Made by a program: the position numbers and the translations under genes | The notes under the pieces: model-generated | What the model was told of the DNA's origin: nothing | What the model saw: only the letters and a program-made list of their open reading frames with translations | Databases searched by the model: none | IMG/VR virus record: IMGVR_UViG_3300011400_000001 | Location: 1-47,096 of that record | Length of the DNA stretch: 47,096 nt | DNA from: a virus | Reading direction: 5' to 3' (one strand) | Part shown: in pieces, positions 3,158 to 43,553 of the stretch | Numbering within the stretch: position 1 is the stretch's first letter | How the letters are laid out: every line of letters starts with the position of its first letter

Positions 3158-3184
3158 AGTGCTGTTCATAAAATGAACAGGACG
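3158..3184 (-). promoter_or_regulatory. 27-nt intercistronic palindromic element, copy 1 (sense: CGTCCTGTTCATTTTATGAACAGCACT)
   Basis: Flush (0 nt) with the stop of 3185..4402 and 11 nt upstream of ATG 3147. Stem is 8+3+8 (CTGTTCAT/ATGAACAG) plus outer arms. Confidence 0.8.
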
Positions 3185-4402
3185 CTATGTAACTTCACCG
3201 TTCTTCTTCATTTCCTCATACTTCTTTTTGGCGATGAACATAGAGGTGAAGCCTTCGCCATTTTTAACGTTGGCCTTCACGAGGTCTCCGCAATCGGTCA
3301 TTGATTTGATTACCGAGTATTGCTCTCTTGGCTCGAAGTCTTTGGAGAGCAATTGACGAAAGACCGGCTCCGTTGTCAGCCCGCCCATCCTTTCTAGGAC
3401 GTCCAACGCCCTCATCATAGGAAGGGCGAGTTCGTTGCGGCCGGACGCTATGCTTAACTTCGGCATATTCGTCTCAAGGCTGTCTAAAAGCGAGGCACCG
3501 ACCTTGAGGTTCCCTGGTGTGATGATGCGGTGAGGTTCTTCTTCTCCGAGCGCCAACAGCATAGCTAGCTTTAAGAGTTGAATATGCTTTGACTCGTAGT
3601 AACCTTCCATTATATCGTCTTCTGGCGTCTTTAGCGTTGTATACCAAACATCAAAGAAACGCCGCGCTTCGGGGTCCCAGGAGAACGGGCCGACGATCTT
3701 TTCCACCTTGCGGAGGTGCTCTTGCATTAACTTCCAAAGCTGTGGGCCATTCGGCGGCAACGTTGGAAAGCTAATCTTCGGACCGCGGACCGTTTCATAG
3801 ACAAAGACAACCCTTCGTGAGAAGCCTCCTGAGATGATTTGCAACTTCAGCTTGTCGATGATCCAGTCGGGGGTTTCACACGCTAGCATGTTGACACAGG
3901 GATTGACGATATTCTCCAGCCCGCGCTTCAACGTCGAGGAATTAAAAACCTTCCCGCCTCGGTCATAAATGTCCGTGAGGAACTCAATCATCGCACCTGG
4001 ATTAAAGGAGAGGAAGTTCTTTAACTCGTTGATGAGGAGGGTGAAAGGTCGGAGTTCCTGTTGGGCGTTGTTTTCATCAGTATAAGAGAAAAGGCACTCG
4101 TCGCTGGCCATGAATTTGACGATGTCCTCGCGGGTCTGGATGGAAGCGGAGACCGGGTGTTCGGGAAAGGTAGACGTTAGGAGATCGCGTGATATATCTT
4201 TTGCAGTAGATTTACGCGATCCTTGCTTTCCTACAAGGCAGACGTAAAGATTCGGGTAGATGTTAAAATAGCCGTGGAACAAATGACAGCGGTTTGAAAT
4301 CGTTGACGCTAGTGCGACTAAGCCACACCAAATATGGAAGTTTCTTGGACACTCATTCCCGCTATTATAGGTAAGGTACCTATGAAGAAAAGAGTTTTCC
4401 AT
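3185..4402 (-). CDS. P-loop NTPase, DUF3987/VirE-like (SF3-type) putative replicative helicase/primase-associated protein
   Basis: 405-aa ORF with a deviant Walker A (LVGKQGSRKST), a Walker-B-like FTLLINELK and GGFSRRVVFVY. The overall pattern matches phage DUF3987-type replication NTPases and it lies in the replication arm. Confidence 0.5.
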   Translation of the reverse strand: MENSFLHRYLTYNSGNECPRNFHIWCGLVALASTISNRCHLFHGYFNIYPNLYVCLVGKQGSRKSTAKDISRDLLTSTFPEHPVSASIQTREDIVKFMASDECLFSYTDENNAQQELRPFTLLINELKNFLSFNPGAMIEFLTDIYDRGGKVFNSSTLKRGLENIVNPCVNMLACETPDWIIDKLKLQIISGGFSRRVVFVYETVRGPKISFPTLPPNGPQLWKLMQEHLRKVEKIVGPFSWDPEARRFFDVWYTTLKTPEDDIMEGYYESKHIQLLKLAMLLALGEEEPHRIITPGNLKVGASLLDSLETNMPKLSIASGRNELALPMMRALDVLERMGGLTTEPVFRQLLSKDFEPREQYSVIKSMTDCGDLVKANVKNGEGFTSMFIAKKKYEEMKKNGEVT

Positions 4403-4405
4403 AGT

Positions 4406-4846
4406 TTATTCATAAAACTCCACTAACAATTTTTCTACTTTATCTGCTGGTTCTAAAGAGAACTCTTTGAGAACCTGGACTAAAGCGGACTGTTTAGTTT
4501 GATACTGGTGGGCCACTCCTGGGTTTTCTTTGTCGGGAAAGTTTAGGAGTGCGAACGCTCCAAAGTATTTCTTGGCTGCTCTATTGTAAGCACGCGCGGC
4601 ATCTTCTTCAGTGTTAAAACTTCCTAGAAGGATAGGTTTGTAATCTCTGTGGTCCCATTCCTTTCCTTGTGGAGGTGGTCCCATAACAAAGTGGGAAAGA
4701 GGAATACTCTGTGTCTTCCCACCTGGCACACAAAAACTATGGTAGACTGACCCTCGAATACATGCCCAGTGAAGTTTTACTGCTTCATCGTACTTATCAG
4801 ACGGAACTATTATGTCTTGCCCGCACTTGCATTTGAATGTTTTCAT
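4406..4846 (-). CDS. AP2-domain DNA-binding protein with N-terminal Zn-ribbon-like motif (degenerate HNH-AP2 homing-endonuclease relative)
   Basis: ATG 4846 forms an ATGA overlap with the polymerase stop. AP2 signature ILLGSFNTEEDAARAYNRAAKKYFGAFALLNFP is present. N-terminus is MKTFKCKCGQ. Only a vestigial WDHRD remains where an HNH motif would be. Confidence 0.7.
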   Translation of the reverse strand: MKTFKCKCGQDIIVPSDKYDEAVKLHWACIRGSVYHSFCVPGGKTQSIPLSHFVMGPPPQGKEWDHRDYKPILLGSFNTEEDAARAYNRAAKKYFGAFALLNFPDKENPGVAHQYQTKQSALVQVLKEFSLEPADKVEKLLVEFYE

Positions 4847-7533
4847 ATGACACCTTTCGTTAGATTTCCCCAAGACTCTCCATACGCACCATCTTGAGGT
4901 ATGGTTATTTGTTGTTCTGCTATCATGAAAGAGTTGTCGAACCACTGTGGTATTTTTCTAGTTGCCCACTCGGTATCTTCAATTCTAAATTGACCTATTA
5001 AGGCATCATGCACTTGGTGAAGAGGCTCAATTTTTAACGAGCCATCGAGATTTCGGTTTTCGGGGTCCATCCAAAGCCTTAGCATCGCAGTATTTGTTGC
5101 TCTTGTTGTTATATACTGGGGTTCATGTGACAACACGTCACCCAATATCTCATTAGCACGACCAAAGAATCGACGAGTGTGGCCGCCGTCACAGACTAAC
5201 TCTGGTTTTTTTGCAATCTTGCGGGCGGTGGCTTCGTGCCACAGACGGAGTCTATAGGCTGAATGCACTGCATTATGGAAGTCCTTAACATCATTGCGGC
5301 TCAGTGCTACTTTGCCAGCAGACTCTTGAAGAATTTCATTGGCTAGTAAATCGGGACCCATAGTGTAGGCGCATCCCCAGATACCTACCTTTGAAACGAA
5401 GTACTGCCATGAATCCTTTTTGACGGACTTTAGCAGTTCCTTAACCTCTTCGCGGCTCTTTCCTTGAAGGGAACCGTTGCCGTTCATTAGCATGTAAGCA
5501 ACTCTGGCAGCAGGCTTGATACCGAAGCGAAGGTCGTCCAGCATGGCGGGATCGCCAAGAGCGTTGAGGTGGGCACCAATAGTCCAACCATCGCTCCCCT
5601 TCAAATCACATTGGAACATGTAATAACCTTCGTCTGCTAGAAACAAGTCTCGCATACCACGGTGTAGTGGATGGTTTTCCGGTCTTAGGTTATCATTATC
5701 AGGGATCGTTTGTAAGTTGTAACCGGACCCTGTAGGAGAGGAGTAGCAAGTTAGCCTACCAGTTTTAGTTCCGACACAATTATACCCACATCTTATCCTT
5801 CCGTCTTTATCAGCGTAGATAGCCAACATTTGAGACCTTGTCCGTAACTCACCAATATCAATAATAAATCGTAACGCGGGATGGTCCGATTTCTTACTGA
5901 GTTTCAGCAATGCTTCGTAATCGGTTGTTGGTTGCTTAGTGGTCCTATGGTATTGCACTGGCAACTTAAGGGTATCATAAAGGTAGGTTTTGAGAGCCCC
6001 ACCCTTTGTGTTAAGGCCAAGGTCACAGGTCGTTTCGATATAACCTACCTCTTCCTTTGAAAGCGGTCCCTCGCCGAGAAGAATACGGATAACTTTATCA
6101 TAGTCTTGCTCGAACTCTTTCCTCGGACGAGAAGGGTCTTTTTTGTATTCCATGATGGATCGCACCTGTGCGAGAAGGCCCGACCGAGGCTGTTTGGTGT
6201 CGAGAAAGCGACCAGCGAGACGGTTGAGGTCGTACTGCAAGTTGTAAATGACGTTGTTGACCTCCTTCAACCGCTTTTTGGAGAGGTCAGTAGCATAACG
6301 AATACCCCTCAACTCCATGTAAAGTAAGGGATTCAACATTGTCATGTTGAAACGGTAGTGGTCGTGCTGTGGCGGTTTGAGGAAGCCATCCAGCTTTTGA
6401 CTGATTTCCATTGTCACCGCGCTATCGCGGCAGCAATATCGGTAGAAGGTATCCTGATCGTTCGATTCGCTGTCTGACTTATAGAAGGGTTCAGCTGTGT
6501 AAAGACTGCACTGAAACCCAAGGCTCTTTTCCAACTCGCAATAAAGCTCGTGGTGCTTGAGCATTGTATCGTCACGGACGTTCGACACAAGACATCCGTA
6601 GCTATATTGTAAGACGAAACGATCATAAAGGCTGTTTTGTAGCGTCTTAGACACAGTCGGATCAGCGAGAAGATTTGCAAGTGCTCTCCAAATGGCTACC
6701 TCTTCGTCCTGTGTCCAGTAAGAGGAGCCGTCCAGCCTAGCAAAAGGCACAATAAAAGAATAGTCTTTGCTTGGCGCTACGCTGATGCAGGACATTGAAT
6801 CAATGTAACCTTCGATGTCGATGGAAACGCTTGCGTGTTCCGCTCGAAGCCGTTCCAGCTCTTCAACGATAGCGATGGCAGACTTCGTTATGCAAAGAGT
6901 TCGTGAAGGAACGTTAAGGGAAGGGGAGAGACCTTCGGTCGCGGCCTTTTTGAGATCGAACGTGAGCAAAGGCATCCACTCGTATTGACGCAAGCAAGCC
7001 GCCGGATGGTGTGCAGCAACACATTTCCAACCTTTGGGGCTAAGAAACAAAGAGCCGCGCCAATCCGATATGCTGTTGGGGAAGATGAACCGTCCATTGC
7101 GGAGAGGCGGTTCTTCGTTGCCGACCTTTAAGACATGAAGGGCGGTAGCACCGAGACAGACAACTAGGTTTGGTTTGTATTCGTAGAGGTCTTTGTAGAG
7201 TCTCTCGATACCGCTTTGGATTTCGGGACTGCTCCAAGAAAAGCGTGCGATCTCGTTGGCAAGGGGTCGATACTGACAAACATTGCCAATGAAGCACGCC
7301 TCACGGACGATGTTTGCCTTACCGAGAAGGGCGGAGAGTAGCCTTCCTGACATGCCAACAAAGGGTTCAAGTACGTATTCTTCGTCTTTTCCCGGAGCTT
7401 CACCAACAATTGCAATGCGGTAGGGAAAGCCGGTAAGGGAGGGAAACTTATTGGGAACGAGGGTCTTTGGACCGGCTTGGGTGGGTTCTTCTTCAGAAAA
7501 CTCAGCAAGGTGAGACGTTTTAGACTTTGGCAT
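4843..7533 (-). CDS. Family-4 UDG-like domain fused to family A DNA polymerase (3'-5' exo + pol)
   Basis: 896 aa. UDG-like motifs: IVGEAPGKDEE, PFVGMSGRLL, HHPAACLR. Exo motif: SIDIEGY. PolA motifs: DLKGSDGWT (A), RLTCYSSPTGSGYNLQTIP, HQVHDALIGQF (C). Confidence 0.9.
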   Translation of the reverse strand: MPKSKTSHLAEFSEEEPTQAGPKTLVPNKFPSLTGFPYRIAIVGEAPGKDEEYVLEPFVGMSGRLLSALLGKANIVREACFIGNVCQYRPLANEIARFSWSSPEIQSGIERLYKDLYEYKPNLVVCLGATALHVLKVGNEEPPLRNGRFIFPNSISDWRGSLFLSPKGWKCVAAHHPAACLRQYEWMPLLTFDLKKAATEGLSPSLNVPSRTLCITKSAIAIVEELERLRAEHASVSIDIEGYIDSMSCISVAPSKDYSFIVPFARLDGSSYWTQDEEVAIWRALANLLADPTVSKTLQNSLYDRFVLQYSYGCLVSNVRDDTMLKHHELYCELEKSLGFQCSLYTAEPFYKSDSESNDQDTFYRYCCRDSAVTMEISQKLDGFLKPPQHDHYRFNMTMLNPLLYMELRGIRYATDLSKKRLKEVNNVIYNLQYDLNRLAGRFLDTKQPRSGLLAQVRSIMEYKKDPSRPRKEFEQDYDKVIRILLGEGPLSKEEVGYIETTCDLGLNTKGGALKTYLYDTLKLPVQYHRTTKQPTTDYEALLKLSKKSDHPALRFIIDIGELRTRSQMLAIYADKDGRIRCGYNCVGTKTGRLTCYSSPTGSGYNLQTIPDNDNLRPENHPLHRGMRDLFLADEGYYMFQCDLKGSDGWTIGAHLNALGDPAMLDDLRFGIKPAARVAYMLMNGNGSLQGKSREEVKELLKSVKKDSWQYFVSKVGIWGCAYTMGPDLLANEILQESAGKVALSRNDVKDFHNAVHSAYRLRLWHEATARKIAKKPELVCDGGHTRRFFGRANEILGDVLSHEPQYITTRATNTAMLRLWMDPENRNLDGSLKIEPLHQVHDALIGQFRIEDTEWATRKIPQWFDNSFMIAEQQITIPQDGAYGESWGNLTKGVI

Positions 7534-7864: not shown

Positions 7865-9328
7865 TTACTTAAAGACCGAATTGGGGTTGAGAGACTTGTA
7901 ATGTTGGCGAAGGTTTTCGAGAAGGGCGTTGTAATGTTCGGTGTTGCTTTCGCAGCCGATGACGTTCCTTTCCATCTTGAGTAGGGAGATGACACCGCTA
8001 CCATGTCCGGCGAAAGGTTCAAGGACGAGGTCTCCGATCCGTGAGGTATGCCGTATCATAAACTGCCAGAACTTGAACGGCTTCACGAAAGGATGCCGCA
8101 TTTGGTCTTTCATTTCGTCATGTGAGGCGACAAGATGTGAAACAGAGCTTTTCTCCGCAAGCTGGGCGTTTCCTTTCCGGCAGACCATAGCGATTTCGGT
8201 ACTCTTTGTATAATTGTAGTTTGCGGCATTATTCATGCAAACGTGTGTCTTAACCCAGGTGAGAGGCCAACGTTGCACAGCAAAGCCAGCCTTGACTGCT
8301 TCGTTGTAAAGAAACTGCCATAACATTTGATCCGCACAAAGGACAAGGAAGCCAGGGTCGGAGAGGCAGCGGTACGCAGAGGGGAAGAACTTCGTTAGGA
8401 GAGCTACATTATCATCGACCCCGTGTTCGTCTGCCACCGTGTCGATATTAACCATGCCAACGTTGTCTTGCTTTAGCATGTCCATATCAATGGCGTAGGG
8501 TGGATCAGTGATGACGGCAGCGAAGCGTTGATCAGTTTCGTTCATGAAGGTGAGGCAGTCAACGTTATGGAATTTCGAGGAAAGGTAGATCGTGCTTTTG
8601 AGTTCGCTCAGGCGGCGGACCTTTTCGGATAAGTATGCTTCGTACGAGCCGGGCGGGTTATGGGGATTTGCGTAGTACTTCTGCTTTTGTTCGTCCAAGG
8701 CGGAAGGTTCCGCTGAAACCTCCGCTTCGAGCTTCTGTGTTTCCGCTGCGTCTTTGGCTTGCTGGTCGGCCAACGCTTTTTGCTTTCGCGCAAGTTCGGC
8801 TTCGACCAATGCAAGGTTGCGGTTGTTAATGATTAACAAGGCTGCCGCTAGGCTATCCGCTTCCCACATGGGACTCTTAGAGTCGTTGCGCAATTCGGAA
8901 GCTACGGCAAGACATTGAGAAACCGCTCCAAGGGACATGTTCAGCAATGCGCCAGTTTCCCGTTGGCCCCACTGCGCTCCTTGGAGGAAGGCTCCTTTAT
9001 ACTTCAAGAAGTGAATCTTAGCGATAGCAATGCAACGTTCCTGCCATGATCTATCTTTGCGACGGACATCCTCTTCCAGTTCCATCTCTTGCAGTTCGTC
9101 TTCGGACAATGTCTCTCGGTAGGCGACGTCGATTTCAGTCCAACCGAGCTGTTGGGCTGCGGTTAGGCGACGTTTCCCTGCGATGAGGCGGTTTTCTTGG
9201 TTAAGAATAATGGGCTGAATTAACCCATAGCGTTTTAGGCTTTCTGCCAACTCTTCGATGTTACCGAGGTCGATACGCTGGCGGTCGATGACCTTAATGC
9301 TTGTAATAGGAAGTCTTATGCGGTTCAT
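7865..9328 (-). CDS. ParB-like nuclease domain fused to beta-class DNA amino-methyltransferase (N6-A or N4-C)
   Basis: ParB/Srx motif LIQPIILNQENRLIAGKRRLTAAQQLGW. MTase motif IV (ITDPPYAI) precedes motif I (LVLEPFAGHGSG). ATG 9328 is preferred over the track's GTG at 9370. Confidence 0.85.
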   Translation of the reverse strand: MNRIRLPITSIKVIDRQRIDLGNIEELAESLKRYGLIQPIILNQENRLIAGKRRLTAAQQLGWTEIDVAYRETLSEDELQEMELEEDVRRKDRSWQERCIAIAKIHFLKYKGAFLQGAQWGQRETGALLNMSLGAVSQCLAVASELRNDSKSPMWEADSLAAALLIINNRNLALVEAELARKQKALADQQAKDAAETQKLEAEVSAEPSALDEQKQKYYANPHNPPGSYEAYLSEKVRRLSELKSTIYLSSKFHNVDCLTFMNETDQRFAAVITDPPYAIDMDMLKQDNVGMVNIDTVADEHGVDDNVALLTKFFPSAYRCLSDPGFLVLCADQMLWQFLYNEAVKAGFAVQRWPLTWVKTHVCMNNAANYNYTKSTEIAMVCRKGNAQLAEKSSVSHLVASHDEMKDQMRHPFVKPFKFWQFMIRHTSRIGDLVLEPFAGHGSGVISLLKMERNVIGCESNTEHYNALLENLRQHYKSLNPNSVFK

Positions 9329-9441
9329 GTTTGTAGGCTTAGTTGAATGGAACGAGAGAAACTCTACCACCGTACCAGAGCACTAAAGCACGGGCAGGGT
9401 AGCCGAATACCTTAGCCAAAGGCAGCGGTGGTAGAAAGGAA

Positions 9442-9554: not shown

Positions 9555-9866
9555 TTATCGCAGTTTCTCCAACAGAGCGTCGGTGTGAATTACGCACGTG
9601 AGGTAGACGAGGTCTTCCTTCGACCAAGAGTTGAACTCCTCAAGGAACGCCTTGCCAATCATCAGCCCGTGGAGCTTTTTGTTAGGAAACCCATGAGCGG
9701 CAATCACGGGCGTGAAACGGTCGCGGATAGTCCGCGTTGCAAGCATAGCCCGTCCCATGATACGCTGGTCCTCCGTTTCGGGTGCGGCCTTTTGAGGAAA
9801 GGCTTTGCCAACGATGTCATTAACAATACGTTGACGCTCTTCTGGCGTGGGATTAGTGGTGCTCAT
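9555..9866 (-). CDS. Hypothetical protein (103 aa)
   Basis: Internal ATG 9866 forms an ATGA overlap with the stop of the upstream gene (9863). No motif recognised. Confidence 0.55.
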   Translation of the reverse strand: MSTTNPTPEERQRIVNDIVGKAFPQKAAPETEDQRIMGRAMLATRTIRDRFTPVIAAHGFPNKKLHGLMIGKAFLEEFNSWSKEDLVYLTCVIHTDALLEKLR

Positions 9867-11161
9867 TGTATATCTTTGAGTATGAAGAAAAGGTTGTCGA
9901 GGCTGCATTGGAAACCACACGCTCCTTTATGTCCTCCGCCGCCTTCTGCCTTTGCAAGAACGGAAAGGTCGATCTCTTCATGTTCGGGGGCATGATACAA
10001 CGATACCGTTGCTTTCTTCTGCTGACCGTCGTAGCGCCACGCCATAAGTGCTTTGTGGTGGGGTTTGATACCGGCGGCGAAGGCTTGTGAACCCGAAAGG
10101 CCGTTGCAGCAAAGGAAGGTGATGCCGTGCCAGTAAACGTCGTGACCGATCTTTGTAATCGTAGAGGCGTTGGCTCTGTCCCGTGACTGCTTTGCCCGAA
10201 CTCCTAACTTAATACAATCGTCGAGGATTTGGTTTGCGAGTTGTTCGTTGTTTAACTGTGCTCGAACAAGGCTAGCAAACTCTTCTGGTTCGAGTTCCCT
10301 AAGACCCGATTGCAGGATGAGAGCACGTTCGTCACGGTGGTCCCAGATGTCGTGCTCACCAGCAAGGCGAATGAGAAGAGGTTCGTCAACCGTTCGGTCG
10401 ATGTAATGTTCTTTTGTAGTTGGCAGCTTGTTCTTATCGCCAAGGAACCATTGCCACACTAGCCGACATGCCGCGACGCCGTCGATGCGATAGCCAGGTA
10501 TGGTAGAGTCGAACTGGTCGATGGCCGTTTTGTGATGGTCAATCCAGATAAGGTTCGGCAGTTTCTGTTGATCCATTAGTTCGGGAATGCTAATGTCGAC
10601 GAGGAAGATACTGTCCCAGTTGAAAGCGTCCACCTCTGGGACAGGCTTGCCGTAGTCCCAACCAATGGATTGGACAACGTTGTCGCCGTGCGAAAGGAAG
10701 TGGCGGCAGACTTCGTTGCTGAGAAGGCCGTCATAATCGGCGTCGTGATGTATAACTAGGTATTTTTTCATGTTAGAAGGGTTCGTTAGGGTCTCTCGGA
10801 CGCGAATCATCTCCTCAGAAGGTTTATCATATTCCGGCCACCGACCGTGCTCTAGCATGGTGGCGATGATGCAGTAGTTTGAGATGTCACGAAAGGAGTC
10901 TTCGATGGACTCGTTGATGGCCTTAAAGCGGCGGTTGTTGAAGATATGTTTTAATCTCTCGAATTTGTCGTTGGCGCGAACAATCACGCCAAAAGGTCCG
11001 AAGGCACACATGTTGCGTGGGCCGTAGTCTAGTTGCTTCTGGTCAAACAGAAGGGCGTTCTGTAACGCGATCTCGATAAAGTCGACAGCCGCGTCGGTTT
11101 TACAACCGAGCCGAGTAGCGACGTCCTTTGCAAGACTGTCAGGGATGGTTAGTTTGTTCAT
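9863..11161 (-). CDS. Fusion of all-alpha NTP-pyrophosphohydrolase/DUF1599-like domain with DHH-DHHA1 phosphoesterase (NrnA/Pde2-sized, RecJ-superfamily)
   Basis: N-terminal half: QLDYGPRN..NDKFERLKHI..ESIEDSFRDISNY. DHH motifs: VIHHDADYDG, LVDISI, IWIDHHKT. DHHA1 motif: GGGGHKGACGF. ATG 11161 is preferred because the track start at 11197 is TTG. Confidence 0.75.
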   Translation of the reverse strand: MNKLTIPDSLAKDVATRLGCKTDAAVDFIEIALQNALLFDQKQLDYGPRNMCAFGPFGVIVRANDKFERLKHIFNNRRFKAINESIEDSFRDISNYCIIATMLEHGRWPEYDKPSEEMIRVRETLTNPSNMKKYLVIHHDADYDGLLSNEVCRHFLSHGDNVVQSIGWDYGKPVPEVDAFNWDSIFLVDISIPELMDQQKLPNLIWIDHHKTAIDQFDSTIPGYRIDGVAACRLVWQWFLGDKNKLPTTKEHYIDRTVDEPLLIRLAGEHDIWDHRDERALILQSGLRELEPEEFASLVRAQLNNEQLANQILDDCIKLGVRAKQSRDRANASTITKIGHDVYWHGITFLCCNGLSGSQAFAAGIKPHHKALMAWRYDGQQKKATVSLYHAPEHEEIDLSVLAKAEGGGGHKGACGFQCSLDNLFFILKDIQ

Positions 11162-11262
11162 TTCAAGAAGTGGATGGTGATGATTGTTAATGTCCAAGCT
11201 AGGGCTACACTTATCAATGCCGTAACAAGGAGTACCGCATTCTTAGTTTGGTTGCCATTCAT
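11158..11262 (-). CDS. Possible 34-aa single-pass membrane peptide (MNGNQTKNAVLLVTALISVALAWTLTIITIHFLK)
   Basis: Hand translation: ATG 11262, TGA 11160-11158, forming an ATGA overlap with ATG 11161 of the next gene. It contains one clear hydrophobic helix. It competes with the alternative TTG-extended start of the DHH gene. Confidence 0.35.
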   Translation of the reverse strand: MNGNQTKNAVLLVTALISVALAWTLTIITIHFLK

Positions 11263-11320: not shown

Positions 11321-11347
11321 GGTGCTGTTCATTTTATGAACAGGACG
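11321..11347 (-). promoter_or_regulatory. 27-nt element, copy 2 (sense: CGTCCTGTTCATAAAATGAACAGCACC)
   Basis: Flush (0 nt) with the stop of the SSB-like gene (TAA 11350-11348). Confidence 0.8.
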
Positions 11348-11794
11348 TTACTTCTTAGCCACGAAGGAATGCACTTCGCTACGTGGCTCATAGATACTAC
11401 CTGTCTCCGGATCAGTGCGCTCTTGGGAGACGCTTGTCTTGACGTTCACAACCCGGCCCACAAGCTGTTGCGGGTTGTTGATGATGTCACGAGCCGTAAC
11501 GCCGCGAATCTCTGCCGCTTGTGCGATTTTGGCAATATTCTTACCGATGTCGACAAGTTGCATCTTCTCAGTTGGTGTGATTACCAGGTTGTGGGTCAAC
11601 GTAAAACTTTGGACCATGTCTCCCTTAATGGATTGTTTTGGGGAAGTGGCCTGTAGCGAAACCACGATCATTTCGCCACCTTTTTTAGTTGGCTTCTTTT
11701 CAGTCTTGGTAATCTTAAACTCGTGAATCCCGGCGGGGATGATGGGGTAACTTATATCTATATCACTAACATTTGTGTCTAGAGGATCGGTCAT
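11348..11794 (-). CDS. DUF669-like phage single-stranded DNA-binding protein (putative)
   Basis: 148 aa. The N-terminal pattern IPAGIHEFKITKTEKKPTKKGGEMIVVSL is typical of DUF669 proteins that pair with Sak4-like ATPases. It is preceded by a long CA-rich leader and followed at 0 nt by element copy 2. Confidence 0.5.
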   Translation of the reverse strand: MTDPLDTNVSDIDISYPIIPAGIHEFKITKTEKKPTKKGGEMIVVSLQATSPKQSIKGDMVQSFTLTHNLVITPTEKMQLVDIGKNIAKIAQAAEIRGVTARDIINNPQQLVGRVVNVKTSVSQERTDPETGSIYEPRSEVHSFVAKK

Positions 11795-17230: not shown

Positions 17231-17401
17231 TTAGTCCTTGCAACAGTCTTTCGCTTCTTCTTTGTCTTCGTAAACCTCATTACATTCGCTGCATTGGTAG
17301 AGGGTGACGATTGCGGACTCGAACTCGACGCCAAGGTCATCTTGGGTGATGAAGCTGGCGCAATGCGGGCATTCGAGTCCTTTGACTTCTTTTACTTTCA
17401 T
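17231..17401 (-). CDS. Small zinc-ribbon protein (56 aa)
   Basis: MKVKEVKGLECPHC...CSEC pattern. ATG 17401 lies 18 nt downstream of element copy 3. The track's upstream ATG (17431) lies inside the element. Confidence 0.6.
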   Translation of the reverse strand: MKVKEVKGLECPHCASFITQDDLGVEFESAIVTLYQCSECNEVYEDKEEAKDCCKD

Positions 17402-17419: not shown

Positions 17420-17446
17420 CGTGCTGTTCATTTATTGAACAGAACG
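17420..17446 (-). promoter_or_regulatory. 27-nt element, copy 3 (sense: CGTTCTGTTCAATAAATGAACAGCACG)
   Basis: 18 nt upstream of ATG 17401 (Zn-ribbon gene) and downstream of compound hairpins. Confidence 0.75.
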
Positions 17447-17618: not shown

Positions 17619-18311
17619 CTATTCCGTCCCCGGCATAGCGGCAAGCTGGGCGCGTTCCCTAACCTCGCATAACTCTTTCGCTGCCCAACCCAACACTTTT
17701 ATGTCCTTCTCCGCGTCGCCGGTGAGTGCCGGAGCGGGCTTACCCACTTCCTTCGAGTAGGCGGCAAGGAACTTCTCGACGTTCTTGATCTTCTTGGCCG
17801 CGTCGACGTACTTCGCAGCCAGAACCTTCGGCTTCGAGATGCGGACCTTCTGGGTGATGTCCACCGCAAGCGGGAAGGTGACCGGATTACCGGATTCGTC
17901 CCGCTTGGGGTTCCCGTCTTCGTCCGTTTCTACCATGTTGCGGCAGCGTTCGTCGAGCTTGCCTTGGAGGAACTTCAGGTCTTGCCACCCTTTGGCAACG
18001 CAGACCTGATTTGCGTATTCGCCTTCTGCGATATAAACAAGAACCGGCTTCCCGTCCTTGTCCTTGCGACCCGAGTCTTTCTTGGGCCACTCGATTCCGG
18101 TTTCCTCTTCGAGGAGGTGGCAGACGACTTCGCGCGCATCGGCCAGTGGGCCACGATACGTGAGGTTGTTGTTGCATTCCTCAAGGACTGCGTCGATAGG
18201 ATTGCCGTTCCCGTCTTTGCGGTTCGCCTGCGCGTTCGCCTCGGCGGTGGTTTCATAGACGAGGATTGGTGCTTCGAGACCTTTTAGTGTTCCGAATCTT
18301 ACTTCTTTCAT
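17619..18311 (-). CDS. Hypothetical acidic/lysine-rich protein (230 aa), GC3-rich codon usage
   Basis: ATG 18311 (the track start at 18353 is GTG). Codons are strongly C/G-ending (aag, gac, ttc, ctc), unlike neighbouring genes. Many spurious overlapping ORFs in other frames reflect the higher GC. Compound hairpins follow the gene. Confidence 0.65.
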   Translation of the reverse strand: MKEVRFGTLKGLEAPILVYETTAEANAQANRKDGNGNPIDAVLEECNNNLTYRGPLADAREVVCHLLEEETGIEWPKKDSGRKDKDGKPVLVYIAEGEYANQVCVAKGWQDLKFLQGKLDERCRNMVETDEDGNPKRDESGNPVTFPLAVDITQKVRISKPKVLAAKYVDAAKKIKNVEKFLAAYSKEVGKPAPALTGDAEKDIKVLGWAAKELCEVRERAQLAAMPGTE

Positions 18312-19506: not shown

Positions 19507-19938
19507 TCACGATGCAAATTCCAAAGCAAGGCGTTCCAGCTTTGTCAAGCGCCGGTTGCCTTTCGCTTCGTTCGCGGGTTTCTGTTCTTCAAAACTGTCG
19601 AGGTGGCCGATAGCAACCTGACCGTCTGCAAGGCGGATAGCCACAAGGATGCCGTCGGTGGCAAAGGCGTGGCCTGCGAACCGGGGAAGGCCGTGAATCT
19701 CTCCGTAGCGGTCGAGTTTGCGCCAATTCAAGGTGCGCTTCGTTAGCCCGAGGTCGGAGTCGACGATCTCGACGTTCCGTCCCGGTGGTCGCGAAGGCGT
19801 GATGCCGCCGATACCGAAGCACGTGGGGCAGCGGCGCATATCTTGACGCGTGAAAAGGCGACCATATCGTGAGTCGCGGATGAGAACATTTTGCAATGTC
19901 TGACCTGTGCCTTTGCATGTTGGGCAGGTGGTTTTCAT
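19507..19938 (-). CDS. Hypothetical Zn-finger protein (143 aa; CPTCKGTG ... CPTC)
   Basis: Two CxxC pairs near the N-terminus. ATG 19938. Confidence 0.55.
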   Translation of the reverse strand: MKTTCPTCKGTGQTLQNVLIRDSRYGRLFTRQDMRRCPTCFGIGGITPSRPPGRNVEIVDSDLGLTKRTLNWRKLDRYGEIHGLPRFAGHAFATDGILVAIRLADGQVAIGHLDSFEEQKPANEAKGNRRLTKLERLALEFAS

Positions 19939-21469: not shown

Positions 21470-21496
21470 AGTCCTGTTCAAGAAATGAACAGCACG
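21470..21496 (+). promoter_or_regulatory. 27-nt element, copy 4 (AGTCCTGTTCAAGAAATGAACAGCACG)
   Basis: In the divergent control region, 15 nt upstream of ATG 21512. Confidence 0.75.
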
Positions 21497-22207: not shown

Positions 22208-22219
22208 GCCAAAGCGGTG

Positions 22220-22477: not shown

Positions 22478-22504
22478 CGTCCTGTTCATTTCTTGAACCG
22501 CACG
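22478..22504 (+). promoter_or_regulatory. 27-nt element, copy 5 (CGTCCTGTTCATTTCTTGAACCGCACG)
   Basis: In the non-coding gap 22208-22754, between convergent genes. Confidence 0.75.
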
Positions 22505-22746: not shown

Positions 22747-22754
22747 GTTGAGGA

Positions 22755-24288: not shown

Positions 24289-24848
24289 ATGGCGATCCAA
24301 ACATTCTTCTTTCTGACTACGTCGAGGCAGCATCTCCGCCCTCCAGTGCGGTTCATAATCTGAACAGCACGAGCGAAGCCGGGCAGCCACGCCCGTTGCA
24401 ATCCGATCCTCGACCCCTCTTCAACGCCCGCGACCCACAGTACGTCTTGCAGTCTGAGAGGCCGGTTCACCGCGCTATCATCTTCCTCGCCGCCCAAGGG
24501 CTTTCCTATATCGAAGTGGCGCAGCAGCTCGGCATCACACCGAGCTGTGTGCAATATGTGGTGAAGCAAGACTGGGCGCAGGAGGAAATCCTTAAACAGA
24601 TTCATGAAAACGGCGGCAATGCCGTCGCGCAGGTTCTGTCGCAGCAAGCTCTCCCAAGCGTGATGAAGTTGATTGAACTTCGGGACAATGAGAAGGTGGC
24701 GGCGGAGGTTCAACGGAAGAGTGCAAATGATCTCCTTGACCGCATCTTCGGCAAGCCTAACCAGCCCGTGACTCACAGCCAGGCCGATCTGAATGAGTTG
24801 TCCGACGAAGAGCTTGCGAAGATTGCAGCACCGGCTCAGCGGAACTAA
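24285..24848 (+). CDS. terS: Terminase small subunit-like HTH protein
   Basis: HTH LSYIEVAQQLGITPSCVQYV, plus the C-terminal pattern AAEVQRKSANDLLDRIFGKPNQ typical of small terminases. It lies upstream of terL. Element copy 6 lies within codons 21-29. Confidence 0.55.
   Translation: MNGDPNILLSDYVEAASPPSSAVHNLNSTSEAGQPRPLQSDPRPLFNARDPQYVLQSERPVHRAIIFLAAQGLSYIEVAQQLGITPSCVQYVVKQDWAQEEILKQIHENGGNAVAQVLSQQALPSVMKLIELRDNEKVAAEVQRKSANDLLDRIFGKPNQPVTHSQADLNELSDEELAKIAAPAQRN
24345..24371. promoter_or_regulatory. 27-nt element, copy 6 (AGTGCGGTTCATAATCTGAACAGCACG; both arms GTGC-type, no orientation)
   Basis: Lies inside codons 21-29 of the terS-like ORF (SAVHNLNST). Confidence 0.65.
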
Positions 24849-27293: not shown

Positions 27294-27320
27294 CGTCCTG
27301 TTCATTAAATGAACTGCACT
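27294..27320 (+). promoter_or_regulatory. 27-nt element, copy 7 (CGTCCTGTTCATTAAATGAACTGCACT)
   Basis: 10 nt after the terL stop. Its right arm supplies ATG 27309. Confidence 0.75.
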
Positions 27321-27530
27321 ACCATAACAGCCTACATTCTAGAACTTCTTTACATAAGGGCTTATTACTCAGGCTTTTCCACAAATTTCTCCCATCGGTT
27401 AACCGAGCACATTTTAGGTGATGGCCCTTATATCACTCGCCGATTTGGAGTATCTCTCATAGTTTTCAACCAAGATTTTGACTCAGTTGTCGACGCAAAG
27501 AAAGCCTTGCTAGACGAGGAAGCCGTATGA
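27309..27530 (+). CDS. Small GIY-YIG/UPF0213-like protein (73 aa), possibly degenerate
   Basis: AYILELLYIRAYYSGFSTNFSHRLTEH matches the GIY..YIG..R..EH layout loosely. Its only ATG lies in the right arm of element copy 7. Confidence 0.45.
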   Translation: MNCTTITAYILELLYIRAYYSGFSTNFSHRLTEHILGDGPYITRRFGVSLIVFNQDFDSVVDAKKALLDEEAV

Positions 27531-27625
27531 AGGCCGATGGAGCAGTCTTTATTACCAAGGAAACCAACCTGGACGCGGCTGAGGCTCTCTTACTCCGCTC
27601 GCACTTCATGTTCTCGAAGCCGTTT

Positions 27626-27669
27626 GGGGGGGACCAGCCGCCGACAGGCGGCTGGGGGGCGACAGCCCC
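27626..27669 (+). other. G7 run plus two adjacent GC hairpins that share a GACA tetraloop, upstream of the portal gene
   Basis: CCAGCCGCC-GACA-GGCGGCTGG (27634-27655) is immediately followed by GGGGC-GACA-GCCCC (27656-27669). Confidence 0.4.
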
Positions 27670-27704
27670 AGCATCATGCTCACTAGTGAAATCTTAAACT
27701 GTCG

Positions 27705-30841: not shown

Positions 30842-31891
30842 ATGGCACTCGGATTAGCAGTAGCTTCAGACATTGCAAATGCGGCCTTGACGTTCTACGT
30901 TCGAGGCGGCACGTTATTGCAAACAATGCAGGAGCGTCCCTTGCTCCGCATATTGGAAGCCGCGAAGGAGACATTTCCTGGTGGCAAAGACAACATTAAC
31001 CTTCCCGTCCAGGGAGCGGTGATGTCCGACACGGCGGGATTCTTTGCAGGGTATACGGAAGATGACGCCTTCACGTTCACACAGGCTCAGAACATGCTTC
31101 GCGCCGCGTATCCGTGGAAAGAGCTGCACGCCGGTCTTATCATCTCTTGGACGGAGTTGAAGAAGGACGGGGTGACGGTCACAGATAGCATGAAGACGTC
31201 GGACCATTCCGAAGTGGAGCTGACGCGGCTCACGTCTATCCTTCAGAACAGGTTGCAGGATTATGGCGAATCGTGGGCACGTTCCATGAACAGCATGTTG
31301 TGGAATGATGGTAGCCAGGACGCGAAAGCGATTCCGGGAATGAAGTCGATCCTCACAGCCTCATCTGCCGTGGGCACAACCGGAGGATTGAACCGCGCAA
31401 CGTACGCATGGTGGCGGCATCGGACCCTTGTGGGTGCCTCCGCTATTGCGCCGAGCGAAGCTAATCAGACGTTGTCGAAAAGGCTTCGCTCCGAACTTCG
31501 TCAGCTTCGGCGGTACCAAGGCAAGCCCAATCAGGCATTGGCTGGTAACGACTTCATCGAAGCTCTTGAAATGGAAGTGCAGTCCAAGGGTATCTACACC
31601 CAGGAAGGCTTTACCAACGAGGGTAAGACTGATCTCGGTATGGCGAAGATTCGTATGCGGGGGCTTGGCACCTTTGAGTACGACCCGTCGCTCGATGATG
31701 CAGGCCAGGCAAAGTATTGCTACATCTTCGACGACCGGCGGGTTAAGCTCCGTCCAATGGAACAGGAGGACAATAAAATTCTGACACCTGAAAGGCCGTA
31801 TAACTATGCAGTGTTCCTGCGTAGCATGACCTATACAGGAGGACTTGTTTGTGACCAACTCAACGCCAACGGCGTGTACCAGGTTACCTAA
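30842..31891 (+). CDS. Major capsid protein
   Basis: 349 aa from ATG 30842 (MALGLAVASD...). Its position follows the scaffold gene. Element copy 8 lies 3 nt after the stop. Confidence 0.75.
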   Translation: MALGLAVASDIANAALTFYVRGGTLLQTMQERPLLRILEAAKETFPGGKDNINLPVQGAVMSDTAGFFAGYTEDDAFTFTQAQNMLRAAYPWKELHAGLIISWTELKKDGVTVTDSMKTSDHSEVELTRLTSILQNRLQDYGESWARSMNSMLWNDGSQDAKAIPGMKSILTASSAVGTTGGLNRATYAWWRHRTLVGASAIAPSEANQTLSKRLRSELRQLRRYQGKPNQALAGNDFIEALEMEVQSKGIYTQEGFTNEGKTDLGMAKIRMRGLGTFEYDPSLDDAGQAKYCYIFDDRRVKLRPMEQEDNKILTPERPYNYAVFLRSMTYTGGLVCDQLNANGVYQVT

Positions 31892-31894
31892 CCG

Positions 31895-31921
31895 CGTCCT
31901 GTTCATTTTCTGAACCCTACG
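31895..31921 (+). promoter_or_regulatory. 27-nt element, copy 8 (CGTCCTGTTCATTTTCTGAACCCTACG)
   Basis: 3 nt after the major capsid stop and 8 nt before ATG 31930. Confidence 0.75.
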
Positions 31922-36117: not shown

Positions 36118-36456
36118 ATGGGCCTGACAGAACTACGTACCAAACACCTACCTCACATTACTCCGGTAGTGTTGCTTTGCATAGCGTTCATGCTTGCCAA
36201 CTCTTCCGGCCCGTTGTTAGTCTGGCTCGAACGTATGCAAGAGAAGGCCAAAACTAGTGGCCTTGATTGGTTTGACGCTTCGATGACAATAGTGTTTATG
36301 GGAGGGCTGTTCGGGAGCACGTTCCTTGCATTTCGGAGTCGTGTTTATACAGATTGGAGAAACGAACGTGACTTGCAGAAAAAGAAAGACTACGAGACAG
36401 ACTTAATAAAGCAACAAAAGTTGGATGAGGAAGGCCGACTGAAGACTTTGGGATGA
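36118..36456 (+). CDS. Two-TM membrane protein with charged C-terminus (holin-like)
   Basis: Predicted TM segments ITPVVLLCIAFMLANSSGPLLVWL and MTIVFMGGLFGSTFLAF, then a Lys/Asp/Glu-rich tail. ATGA overlap with REC1. Confidence 0.55.
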   Translation: MGLTELRTKHLPHITPVVLLCIAFMLANSSGPLLVWLERMQEKAKTSGLDWFDASMTIVFMGGLFGSTFLAFRSRVYTDWRNERDLQKKKDYETDLIKQQKLDEEGRLKTLG

Positions 36457-36878
36457 AAGATGTGCTAAAGAGATTCTGGCGCTCACGGGAAGGAGTAGTA
36501 GCCCATCCAGTGAGGGTGGAGGCATTAATCGTTGAGGACAAAAAAGACGAGGCGGACATTCTTAAGACATTGTTGGTACAGCAAGGTGCAGTGGTGACAC
36601 TAGCTTACAGCATTGCCGAGGCTTTGGAGTGTTTGAAGACGATAAACATGTTCCAGTTGGTGTTTGTCGACCTTGGCCTTCCAGATGGGTCGGGGATTGA
36701 GGTAGTTAGGCTTGTGAAGGAACGACGTCGCATGAGTCATGTGATCGTGGTTTCTGGTGCGATTGAGAAGATACCGCTTGTGGTTAGCTACGGTTACATT
36801 GGAATCTTAGGGAAACCTTATACGGTTAACAGCGTTGGAGAAATTCTATGGAAACATCGGTTGCCTTGTGCTTACTAA
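36453..36878 (+). CDS. Stand-alone CheY-like receiver (REC) domain protein 1
   Basis: LIVEDKKDE (acidic pocket), LVFVDLGLPDGSG (phospho-acceptor Asp), VIVVSG (Ser/Thr), LGKPY (Lys). No output domain. Confidence 0.85.
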   Translation: MKDVLKRFWRSREGVVAHPVRVEALIVEDKKDEADILKTLLVQQGAVVTLAYSIAEALECLKTINMFQLVFVDLGLPDGSGIEVVRLVKERRRMSHVIVVSGAIEKIPLVVSYGYIGILGKPYTVNSVGEILWKHRLPCAY

Positions 36879-37402: not shown

Positions 37403-37867
37403 ATGCTGCGAAGCCAACAGAGATTTGTTCTTATTGTAGACGACGATCATTACGTCGTCTCGGTATTCCGGCGCACCTTCGAAAGGCAGGAGGATTTCCT
37501 GTTGGATGTAGCAATGACGGTCGAACATGCCTTGCAGAAGATACGGGTGGTGCAGTACGATCTCATATTCCTAGATATGAAAATCGGTACCAACTACGCG
37601 GGAATGGAAGTCCTTCGGGAGTTGAATCGACAAGCGATTAAGTTGGAAGCGGATAGACTACAGACGCCGAACAGCTTAGTAATCATTATGACTTCTTCAA
37701 TCCAGTTGCGAGAAGTGATGCCAGAGGCACATGAACTTGGGGTTGTGTGCTTTATGGACAAACCGGTACCTCTAGATGAGAAGTTCATTCGCAAAATCGT
37801 ACACAGGGTAGGGCTTCCACTGCTGCCAAGAAGGAGTGGTGGGGGGAGCAGTCCACCGATACATTAA
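37403..37867 (+). CDS. Stand-alone CheY-like receiver (REC) domain protein 2
   Basis: VLIVDDDH, LIFLDMKI (acceptor Asp), VIIMTSS (Thr), FMDKPV (Lys). It has a short Pro/Gly/Ser tail and no output domain. Confidence 0.85.
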   Translation: MLRSQQRFVLIVDDDHYVVSVFRRTFERQEDFLLDVAMTVEHALQKIRVVQYDLIFLDMKIGTNYAGMEVLRELNRQAIKLEADRLQTPNSLVIIMTSSIQLREVMPEAHELGVVCFMDKPVPLDEKFIRKIVHRVGLPLLPRRSGGGSSPPIH

Positions 37868-42336: not shown

Positions 42337-42340
42337 TGTT

Positions 42341-42574
42341 ATGAAACTAATCCCATTGAGGAACACATGGATGGCTACTATTTATTTACACGGTAAAGTA
42401 GTGCATTGTAAAACCTTTGAGAACTTCGAAGACGCCGTAGCCGCTAGAAAATGTTGGGAGAAGGAACTATTTGGAGAGTTCGCTTGTCAAAACCCAGAAC
42501 GCCTTCCTACAAGACCAAGAGGCGTTGACTCTCTTACAGAGCCATCAGTGTCTCATCTTGAAGAGTTTTGCTAG
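42341..42574 (+). CDS. Stand-alone AP2-domain protein (77 aa)
   Basis: WMATIYLHGKVVHCKTFENFEDAVAARKCWEKELFGEFACQNP follows the AP2 pattern W.A.I...GK...G.F...E.A..A......GEFA..N. It is inserted among internal-protein genes. Confidence 0.6.
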   Translation: MKLIPLRNTWMATIYLHGKVVHCKTFENFEDAVAARKCWEKELFGEFACQNPERLPTRPRGVDSLTEPSVSHLEEFC

Positions 42575-42586
42575 AAGGAATTTTTT

Positions 42587-43528
42587 ATGGCACTAATAAA
42601 CTATAGCCCGTGGGCTGATGCGGCAAATGTGGGAAGTGGTTTAGGGGCTTCGTTGACGAACCTTCTAATCGAACTGCCGAAGATTCGTCAGCAGCAAGCA
42701 CTTCTTCAGGCACATCAGCAACTTTACGGTGCGCAGGCAGGATTGTATCAAGCCGAAGCCGAACGCAATAGGGCGCAAATCCCGACGTATCAGGCACAAG
42801 TCGCTGCGGATACGGCGAGAGCAGGTACCTATAATGCAGAGAGGGACTTGTATTCTGCAAGAGCTAAAGAGATTGGTTCGGTAGAAATGGCAAAGGAACG
42901 GCTTGGTAACGCTCTCCGACAGATTCCGTCGACCTTAGCAGCGGGTGGTTCGATTGATCCGTTAATAGCTGACGTGGTGGACAATATGGCGAGGCTGCCT
43001 CACGCAGATAGGGCAAGCCTTGGCGAATCGTTGGCGCAGATGCTTGAAATGTCTAAGCCGAAGTTCCGCACTAACCTTGGACTTGGAAACAAGGGCGATC
43101 CGTTTAACGTTCCCGCTGGTGCGACAGCGATTGATCCCTCAGTGCAGCCAGGGCAGCCAGGACAGATAGTCTATCAGTCGCCAAGAACAACGGGATATGG
43201 ACAAGACCTTGTAGACCCGGCAACTAAAGAAGTCATCGCGTCAGGGCGAGATAGACCTTTAGGTGATGCTATCCATAGCGGGGTATTTGGGGCTGCCGCA
43301 AGAGGTTACTTTGATCCTTTCGCAACGGACGCGAAGAAGAACGCTATCTTAGAAAGTATTCCTCAGTTCCTTCAAGCGTTACCGGGACAAGGAATGCCAA
43401 CGAAGGCACCTCCGATGGTACCGGGACGGAAGCCAGCGCAGGGAGGCGCGGTGAACCCAAGATACAATCCTGCAACCGGTCAGGTGGAGAAGTACGACCC
43501 CGCGACGGGGAGATGGATTCCGCAATAG
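42587..43528 (+). CDS. Internal virion protein (putative), 313 aa
   Basis: Q/A-rich coiled-coil N-terminal half. The stop TAG overlaps the first bases of element copy 9. Confidence 0.5.
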   Translation: MALINYSPWADAANVGSGLGASLTNLLIELPKIRQQQALLQAHQQLYGAQAGLYQAEAERNRAQIPTYQAQVAADTARAGTYNAERDLYSARAKEIGSVEMAKERLGNALRQIPSTLAAGGSIDPLIADVVDNMARLPHADRASLGESLAQMLEMSKPKFRTNLGLGNKGDPFNVPAGATAIDPSVQPGQPGQIVYQSPRTTGYGQDLVDPATKEVIASGRDRPLGDAIHSGVFGAAARGYFDPFATDAKKNAILESIPQFLQALPGQGMPTKAPPMVPGRKPAQGGAVNPRYNPATGQVEKYDPATGRWIPQ

Positions 43529-43553
43529 TGCGGTTCAGAAAATGAACAGGACG
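43527..43553 (-). promoter_or_regulatory. 27-nt element, copy 9, inverted relative to local transcription (plus strand AGTGCGGTTCAGAAAATGAACAGGACG; reverse complement CGTCCTGTTCATTTTCTGAACCGCACT)
   Basis: Overlaps the TAG stop of 42587..43528 and lies 7 nt before ATG 43561 of the giant gene. Confidence 0.75.

Follow-up and report, generated by a model that had tools for sequence, protein, structure and literature searches.

The phage genome in IMG/VR virus record IMGVR_UViG_3300011400_000001 (positions 1 to 47,096; this whole stretch of 47,096 nucleotides is called the window below) carries nine copies of a 27-nucleotide (nt) element built as an inverted repeat, almost all of them at gene boundaries, which raises the question of what reads these copies and whether they are read as DNA or as RNA. 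A sequence-only reading of the window had offered three answers: an operator for a dimeric DNA-binding protein, an RNA stem-loop, or a hairpin promoter like those of phage N4. As the first and last 123 bases of the contig are identical (1–123 and 46974–47096), the window is a circular contig that represents a complete phage genome of 46,973 base pairs (bp).

We favour, with confidence about evenly divided, the reading that the elements are sites on double-stranded DNA (dsDNA) for a co-evolving symmetric dimer, which would gate the entry of RNA polymerase into the non-early blocks of the genome. The ligand would then be a protein dimer on DNA, most probably encoded by the phage and co-evolving with its sites; its mode of control and the direction of that control (repression or activation) are likewise what we infer.

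Nine strong sites with two-fold symmetric conservation

All nine sites, named S1 to S9 along the window, were found with the positions and sequences originally given for them. Searching for CTGTTCAT-N3-ATGAACAG with up to three mismatches returned exactly these nine, where shuffled sequences led us to expect 0.24, which bears out the claim that such a motif exceeds chance. Scored with a symmetrised weight matrix, the sites reach 32.5–42.1 bits, compared with −0.2 for the tenth-best position of the genome and 13.8 for the best shuffle. The half-site GT-N3-GTTCA occurs 22 times in the window; 18 of these are the arms of the nine sites and four are isolated, against 5.4 expected by chance. The sites are a discrete class, with nine strong and no weak members, and as a feature they are statistically unambiguous. 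Their density in coding DNA is not comparable, as eight of the nine site centres fall in the non-coding 6.2% of the genome (binomial P = 1.8e-9). Two details of the first description needed correction: the 8+3+8 inverted repeat ascribed to every copy is perfect in S1 and S2 and imperfect in the other seven, and the 3-nt centre, said to vary freely, is A or T at 25 of its 27 bases.

The window was compared with stretches of about 21 kb from nine related genomes (numbers of the form L0xx label the stretches). The element is present in L019+L052, L020, L021, L048+L053, L054 and L056 and was not found in L046+L055, L047 and L049; the 40 sites analysed together come from six element-bearing genomes, that is, the window and five relatives. 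Each genome carries one variant at all of its own sites, and four variants occur among the six genomes: GTTCAT-N3-ATGAAC in the window, L054, L020 and L056, ATTCAA-TWA-TTGAAT in L019/L052 (nine sites), GTTCGA-TWA-TCGAAC in L021 (six sites) and GTTCAA-TWA-TTGAAC in L048/L053 (eight sites). Changes between genomes are symmetric, affecting both arms together at pairs 7/21, 11/17 and 12/16. The capsid proteins of the window and L019 are 87–88% identical and their variants differ, whereas more distant pairs of genomes share one variant.

Conservation within the element is dyad-symmetric. Over the 40 sites the invariant columns are G2, T3, T8, T9, C10, G18, A19, A20, A25 and C26; within the window G2 T3, G7–A11, T17–C21 and A25 C26 do not change, and positions 1, 4–6, 12, 16, 22–24 and 27 vary. 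The TTC and GAA blocks are one helical turn apart, the outer GT/AC lies about 6.5 bp further out, and the orientation of the central triplet is random. Because this conservation is two-fold symmetric and leaves the bases between the patches unconstrained, the two conserved patches per half read as the signature of a dimer on dsDNA rather than of a stem kept by pairing.

The arms are under no constraint to pair. Four of the 12 pairs are unpaired in 45–70% of the 40 sites (pair 1/27 is non-complementary in 27 sites, 4/24 in 28, 5/23 in 18 and 6/22 in 20), and changes on both sides of a pair are seen only between genomes, as a DNA dyad would predict too. Since complementarity at the variable positions within genomes amounts to 87 of 200, against 99.6 ± 4.8 after the right arms had been re-dealt within each genome, pairing of the arms is not selected and is, if anything, avoided. 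Within genomes, the covariation that had been suggested as a check of an RNA structure turned out negative, in that the stem is not maintained by compensation.

Recurrent junctions in the window and its relatives

The genome is organised like that of a tailed phage. Its leftward block (3.1–21.1 kb) contains small orphan early genes and then replication genes (UvrD-type helicase, exonuclease, Sak4-like annealing protein, a protein resembling single-stranded DNA-binding protein (SSB), DUF1599-DHH, ParB_N-DNA methylase, family A DNA polymerase and primase), and a rightward block from 21.5 kb encodes a terS-like helix-turn-helix (HTH) protein, an RNase T-like exonuclease, TerL, portal, major capsid and tail proteins. 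Placement of the element is intergenic and mostly proximal to gene starts. The location at gene boundaries holds for eight sites, the ninth (S6) being embedded in frame in the terS-like gene. Non-coding gaps of at least about 86 nt contain 17 of the 40 sites; in our tally from the gene tables of the window and its relatives, 9–11 of these hug the downstream start (within about 25 nt), three or four the upstream stop, and two are in mid-gap. In syntenic relatives the same boundaries are occupied again, even where the variants differ, and such conservation of placement among relatives is a sign of function.

S1 (3158..3184, minus strand, 42.1 bits) starts directly after the stop codon of the primase gene (3185–4402, minus) and closes the leftward replication block. 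The junction is convergent, with S1 facing the 3' end (2992) of a giant plus-strand open reading frame (ORF), and a doubtful ORF of 52 amino acids (aa) begins 10 nt downstream of the site. The corresponding convergent end of the L053 replication block carries a site as well; the convergent junctions with a site are S1, L052 5436, L053 20166 and L056 6668.

S2 (11321..11347, minus, 40.3 bits) directly follows the stop of the SSB-like gene (11348–11794, minus). A distance of 59 nt separates it from a downstream hydrophobic ORF of 34 aa, with the DUF1599-DHH gene next in line; the counterparts of S2 before the DUF1599 gene are L052 15186, L054 16198 and L056 18032. The small ORF (11158–11262, minus) is unannotated, has a single predicted transmembrane segment, and overlaps the start of the DUF1599-DHH gene (ATGA).

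S3 (17420..17446, minus, 38.4 bits) comes after the last early gene (17619–18311) and a GC-rich terminator-like hairpin, and 18 nt before a 56-aa zinc-ribbon ORF (17231–17401) that is followed by the helicase gene. Sites stand before the helicase block also in L052 (9949), L054 (9529), L056 (11174) and L021 (729). The zinc-ribbon ORF shows that the helicase truly starts at the ATG at 17228 (500 aa) and not at 17340. Small zinc-ribbon or Cys-rich basic ORFs (49–67 aa) begin 10–18 nt after sites in three places, namely 17231–17401 (minus) in the window, L054 9572–9775 and L053 2802–2951, and two of the three are missing from the source annotations.

S4 (21470..21496, plus) forms the right edge of the divergent non-coding region 21114–21484. 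The first rightward gene, which extends to 22207, probably begins at the right-arm ATG of this site (21485), and its homologue in L020 starts 6 nt after that genome's own site (2185). S5 (22478..22504, plus, 36.6 bits) sits in the middle of a 547-nt non-coding stretch (22208–22754), bounded by the 3' ends of the first rightward gene and of a lone leftward gene (22755–23126). No conserved RNA or structure was detected around S5, and a non-coding RNA downstream of it was considered and dropped (fold z-score only −1.6, no Rfam match). The gene-poor 1.3-kb region from 22208 to 23538 also contains a run of about 13 T (~22327–22340) and a long imperfect hairpin (~22545–22617), without a match in Rfam; just beyond the stop of the lone leftward 123-aa gene there is a GC-rich terminator-like hairpin (22723–22748), then 412 nt of non-coding DNA.

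S6 (24345..24371, plus) occupies codons 21–29, in a variable linker, of the terS-like gene (24285–24848). Sites L021 4844 and L056 4585 lie in the same stretch (codons ~20–29, so that in three genomes the site is about 60–86 nt into the gene), whereas L054 and L020 have theirs 28 and 14 nt, respectively, upstream of the gene start.

S7 (27294..27320, plus) starts 10 nt after the stop of TerL (25778–27283), and its right-arm ATG opens a 73-aa GIY-YIG-like remnant ORF (27309–27530) inserted before the portal gene; the L053 site at 4931 shows the same arrangement, and L019 has a site between TerL and portal, 10 nt before the portal start. Relative to L019 the GIY-YIG-like ORF is an insertion between these two genes, and it is part of one of two homing-endonuclease remnants in the window (27309–27697, plus, and 4406–4945, minus). 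The second is an AP2/HNH-like ORF flanked by the primase and polymerase genes, and relatives carry HNH_3/AP2 genes at other junctions. In four sites (S4, S7, L053 4931 and L056 18032) the ATG of the right arm serves as the start codon, probably so in S4 and S7; the peptides MNRT, LNRT and MNST that recur in the six-frame translation had been put down to the repeat itself, and in S4 and S7 this was too sweeping, as MNST and MNCT there probably begin real proteins and are not pure artefacts.

S8 (31895..31921, plus) begins 3 nt beyond the stop codon of the major capsid gene (30842–31891) and ends 8 nt before the next gene (31930). The position directly after the capsid gene is occupied also in L019 (11057), L020 (11056) and L048 (11050) and is empty in L049. 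S9 (43527..43553, 38.6 bits) is listed on the plus strand, an ambiguous assignment given that the minus strand gives a slightly better match to the consensus. The site shares bases with the stop codon of the gene at 42587–43528 and ends 7 nt before the ATG at 43561 of an orphan ORF of 2134 aa, which runs on the plus strand across the contig junction to 2992. The N-terminal third of this giant ORF is Gly/Pro-rich and segments of its C-terminal part are hydrophobic, and an internal repeat with the core TGAI.PEGSERR occurs twice within a looser repeat of about 25 aa.

Neither the element nor a comparable dispersed palindrome was found in L046/L055 (90% of a 47.4-kb genome), L047 or L049 (21 kb each). 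In L055 another palindrome of 12 bp, GCTCCATGGAGC, occurs in four perfect copies that cluster in the non-coding DNA of the early region (1003, 3248, 3314 and 3498) and may be an alternative operator system. Searches of the public phage collection yielded no close relative of the window, the relatives reached in IMG/VR via TerL are only about 45% identical and lack the motif, and a motif scan of IMG/VR gave three single, unrelated matches. In metagenomes, homologues of the capsid protein number more than 600 and those of the helicase thousands, and a scan via TerL led back largely to that distant group, adding two short, closely related fragments. The window itself gave nothing in tRNA and Rfam scans.

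Two further gene sets of the window deserve mention. The replication block includes a set of modification and repair genes, comprising a fusion of ParB_N with an N6/N4 methylase (7865–9370, minus), a fusion of DUF1599, a 'nucleotide modification associated' domain, with a DHH phosphoesterase (9863–11161, minus), and the family A polymerase (4843–7533, minus), homologues of which have a UDG domain; together they hint at modified DNA. In the tail and structural module there are two stand-alone response-regulator receiver (REC) domain proteins (36453–36878 and 37403–37867, plus; Pfam E ~5e-14), with homologues in L019 and L020, an unusual cargo for a phage structural operon.

A proposed dimer on DNA weighed against its rivals

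The half-site n-G-T-n-n-n-G-T-T-C-A-(T) is present in two copies facing each other across an A/T-rich 3-bp centre, and the sites occupy narrow intervals on the 5' side of nearly all non-early blocks, with some at operon ends. The blocks fronted in this way are the helicase, DUF1599-DHH/polymerase, the first rightward gene, terS, portal, the post-capsid genes and the giant gene. In the mechanism that we propose, an occupied site would gate the entry of RNA polymerase into the block downstream, acting as a roadblock or as a promoter-proximal operator, and the middle and late blocks would be controlled coordinately, in a manner that may resemble the dispersed operators of other phages. We prefer an operator or roadblock to a promoter or a translational operator because the position of the site is flexible, as seen in its upstream or internal location at terS and in the convergent junctions. 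An operator or roadblock accommodates all position classes: junctions in which stop, site and start are tightly packed, long gaps with the site at their downstream end and room for a promoter, the interior of terS, and convergent ends. Neither the promoter reading nor the translational-operator reading covers all of them. Among the three answers first offered, the dimer operator fits best, having in its favour half-sites that occur almost only as inverted pairs, a nearly perfect symmetry of conservation with at most a weak bias in orientation, no selection for pairing and genome-specific variants; the phage proteins that had been named as its binders did not find support.

Several observations weigh against this operator. 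A Pfam and PHROG search of nearly all window proteins for a regulator turned up only the terS-like HTH protein, the ParB_N-methylase, zinc-ribbon or zinc-finger proteins and the homing-endonuclease remnants, none of which has a pattern of presence and absence matching that of the motif, and the early genes of the relatives have no Pfam match on record except for one HNH endonuclease in the motif-less L055. A flip-permutation test over the 40 sites gave a weak bias in orientation relative to transcription (P = 0.03, with no single variant class significant), which is not expected of a purely symmetric operator. About 27 of the 40 sites end 0–28 nt before a start codon, and the 45 nt downstream of the sites are little structured (−4.8 versus −8.2 kcal/mol in controls), both of which would suit a function at the RNA level or at transcription starts; the lack of downstream structure is also as expected for translation start regions, and the 45 nt upstream are structured like control windows. 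The symmetric changes of both arms between genomes are equally expected for an RNA hairpin. Finally, a lysogenic role of the type played by stoperators has no support, because Pfam and PHROG scans covering nearly all ORFs revealed no integrase, no repressor or repressor-type HTH and no partition system.

The candidates for the binding protein fared as follows. For the terS-like HTH protein, one of the two phage proteins originally proposed, the recognition helix does not track the motif variant; it differs among genomes with the same motif and resembles that of L049, which has no motif in 21 kb. The other, a 45-aa ORF likened to ribbon-helix-helix proteins (19935–20072), has no Pfam or PHROG match and no homologue in any relative, including those with the identical motif. 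The ParB_N-methylase, a DnaJ-type zinc-finger protein and the lone leftward 123-aa gene were set aside as well, since each has homologues in motif-less relatives or is absent from a genome that bears the motif. Neither the terS-like protein nor the ParB-methylase is a likely binder. We also considered, as no more than a candidate, a 230-aa early protein (17619..18311, minus) encoded by the last gene before S3. It has the invariant motifs NNNL.YRG, KDG and AVDIT, and it is 79–87% identical among genomes of the same variant and 39–48% identical in the genome with the ATTCAA variant, where the helicase is 64% and TerL 77% identical. Its divergence thus loosely tracks the motif variant, and it is kept as a weak candidate; a 28%-identical homologue is present in the motif-less L055, no match was found in Pfam or PHROG, and an AlphaFold model with a pLDDT (predicted local distance difference test) of 77 had no match in the PDB (best E = 0.6).

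If the element acted at the RNA level instead, a transcribed hairpin near the translation start, with a GUUCA/UGAAC core stem, an internal loop and a closing GU/AC pair, would be read by a phage-specific RNA-binding protein or endoribonuclease and would control the translation, processing or stability of the adjacent cistron. We regard this as unlikely, although it would explain the closeness of most sites to start codons (with AUG in the right arm in four), the little-structured 45 nt downstream, the weak bias in orientation and the paired changes at 7/21, 11/17 and 12/16. Reliable pairing is limited to an A/U-rich core of 5–6 bp, arm positions 4–6 are less complementary than chance, and G·U pairs account for only 8 of 200 cells at variable positions, none of them in the window. 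Predicted hairpin energies range from −1.9 to −14.2 kcal/mol, with several sites close to unfolded, and the conserved GU/AC pair would be thermodynamically meaningless beyond a 3x3 internal loop. Moreover, no start region is available for control where sites lie within terS or at convergent junctions, and Rfam holds no match for the element. Features of intrinsic terminators were not found either, as the sites are followed by A-rich sequence and not by a U-tract and a terminator scan of 15–33 kb (S3–S8) identified none of them. The stem-loop option is weakened by these results, the mismatches being uncompensated, G·U pairs rare and the energies widely spread. An RNase III site, a nut/boxB-like element and a coat-protein operator hairpin were each rejected, as the copies within a genome show no compensatory maintenance of a stem.

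More doubtful is a phage-specific promoter, used by a phage polymerase or sigma-like factor that has escaped recognition and perhaps extruded as a hairpin in the manner of N4, with transcription starting in or just after the right arm so that every middle or late unit would be marked and leaders would be very short. The early block (17.6–21.1 kb) has no site and sites precede most of the later blocks; terminator-like hairpins stand directly before S3, L021 3709 and L052 5436 and a GC-rich hairpin before L054 9529; the variants are genome-specific, as are promoters in the T7 group; sigma-70-type promoters are not enriched (8 found, 11.6 expected); and the phage encodes the 2134-aa protein of unassigned function. 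Terminator hairpins upstream are not a general feature, though: they were seen at four or five sites and are overall not enriched. The giant ORF has no Pfam, PHROG or PDB-sequence match, no DxDxD motif of an RNA polymerase was found in it or in 12 other large ORFs checked, and an 896-aa ORF proved to be the family A DNA polymerase. The near-perfect dyad with its randomly oriented centre is unlike known promoters, convergent and terS-internal sites would have nothing sensible to transcribe, leaders would be 0–30 nt long and in some cases essentially absent, and hairpin extrusion would be very weak at many sites. N4-like hairpin promoters, the third of the original options, are thus unlikely, with no RNA polymerase detectable, the early block free of sites, and sites at late junctions, in terS and at convergent ends. 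It is similarly improbable, and by our estimate slightly more so, that the elements are promoters or initiation sites of an unrecognisable phage transcription system, for example with an RNA polymerase activity in the 2134-aa protein or in an orphan early protein. If they were, DNA would be read as a two-fold symmetric site or an extruded hairpin, transcription would start a few bases before the start codon and every middle or late unit would be defined in this way, and the four variants would be polymerase/promoter specificity classes comparable to T7, T3 and SP6.

Other promoter geometries were set aside. A sigma-70 −10 or extended −10 element in the A/T-rich centre was rejected on inspection, the key −11 A being present in at most three of nine sites on either strand and the centre lacking orientation, as were sigma-54, extracytoplasmic function (ECF), MerR-type and class II activator geometries, for which the spacing is wrong and no room for a promoter exists between site and start codon.

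There is only a slim chance that the sites belong to a host transcription factor, such as a LexA-like protein or a global regulator, with variants that reflect different hosts. No phage-encoded regulator was found, and the GTTC-N7-GAAC frame recalls the GTTC/GAAC half-sites of several LexA lineages. Opposed to this are the different variants of the window and L019 in spite of their similar capsids, the sharing of one variant by more distant pairs, and the three other relatives that lack the element at the same junctions in the DNA compared. In addition, a scan of 185,579 species genomes with the extended motif gave just two isolated, unrelated matches, each single.

Least probable of all is a selfish or recombinogenic palindrome (a miniature mobile element or a hotspot of module exchange, homogenised by gene conversion and without a regulatory ligand), because junctions at which some 27 nt and a few further bases look precisely inserted into compact gene arrays, presence and absence at the same junction among relatives, the homing-endonuclease remnant directly after S7 and the phage's Sak4-type annealing protein and exonuclease have to be set against a strictly symmetric pattern of invariant and free positions, conserved locations in genomes with different variants, and the lack of target-site duplications, flanking conservation and a transposase.

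Dispersed repeats of other phages and the meaning of the element

By analogy, the element is best filed among the dispersed, genome-specific, operator-like repeats already seen in other phages, and its closest analogues appear to be the Cluster O repeats, the stoperators and the T1-type repeats, the first being the closest. Cluster O mycobacteriophages (Corndog and relatives) carry a 17-bp dyad, TGTTCGG-N3-CCGAACA, in more than 30 copies per 72 kb, with a centre that is mostly TTT or AAA (PMC4351075). About one third of these copies are inside genes, their authors see no link to translation starts, and a dimeric protein of unknown identity is the predicted ligand of the repeat, whose function is likewise unknown (PMC4351075). 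Both elements share the arrangement TGTTC-(2 nt)-(3-nt A/T-rich centre)-(2 nt)-GAACA, that is, the GTTC-N7-GAAC frame, and both are dispersed, largely intergenic or near gene 5' ends, without meaningful orientation and without signs of lysogeny. They differ in that the present element has 9–10 copies per 47 kb, a 27-bp unit with an additional invariant GT/AC, an 89% non-coding and mostly start-proximal placement, AT, AA or GA at arm positions 6–7 in place of GG, and a host lineage that is unrelated. The resemblance in sequence may be coincidental.

Stoperators of Cluster A phages (L5, Bxb1) occur in many copies in short intergenic gaps of both genome arms and are proposed to block the passage of RNA polymerase (PMC6550527, PMC4351075), and their motif differs between related phages and co-varies with the repressor (PMC6550527). 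They are 13 bp long, asymmetric and mostly in one orientation relative to transcription, and are bound by a known HTH immunity repressor in temperate phages (PMC6550527, PMC4351075). The element of the window is comparable in its placement in short intergenic gaps of leftward and rightward modules (eight of nine sites non-coding), in the variants that differ between related phages and in the proposed obstruction of RNA polymerase. It is distinct as a near-perfect dyad of 27 bp with half-sites in inverted pairs, a weak bias in orientation, and no repressor or integrase found. The stoperator repressor binds as a monomer. T1-like lytic phages (T1, Stevie) have 22-bp repeats in 16–20 mostly intergenic copies, of unknown function (PMC4319613). 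These are alike in their intergenic dispersal and differ in being asymmetric and co-oriented with transcription, with another sequence and no dyad. Conserved intergenic operator copies are spread over the genomes of phiC31 (inverted repeats) and P1 (the asymmetric C1 operators) as well, the difference here being that these phages are temperate and their repressors identified. The N4 virion RNA polymerase promoters, short-stem hairpins with a 3-nt loop upstream of early genes, look like the best copies of the window in stem and loop; the present sites are unlike them in being two-fold symmetric and not confined to early genes, with many weak hairpins and no virion RNA polymerase detectable.

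Other known sites were rejected. A parS site, a 16-bp palindrome (TGTTNCACGTGAAACA) to which a ParB with an HTH binds, differs in sequence and spacing, and the sole ParB_N protein is the methylase fusion, which is also present in the motif-less L055. Sites of the pac or small-terminase kind would cluster in or close to terS, bound by the TerS HTH, and would not be spread genome-wide; the TerS helix is not tied to the variant, and terS is present in L049, which is motif-less in 21 kb. The start-associated sequences of Cluster K phages, asymmetric motifs of 13 bp set at a constant short interval before start codons (PMC4351075), are unlike the present sites, which are symmetric, variable in distance (0–28 nt) and in some cases at operon ends or within a gene.

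To phage specialists the phenomenon itself would be no great surprise. In an otherwise unannotatable genome, the sites mark operon boundaries and correct several gene starts. Dispersed genome-specific repeats of phages are understood only for temperate actinophages, in the case of the stoperators, and the lineage of the window is a natural experiment in this respect, with four variants in six genomes, conserved junctions and element-less sister genomes; as this comparative pattern is unusually clear, the ligand should be findable. It could show how a lytic phage without an RNA polymerase of its own partitions its genome into separately controlled blocks and, if the resemblance to the Cluster O repeat is more than coincidence, the answer would extend to the Cluster O phages.

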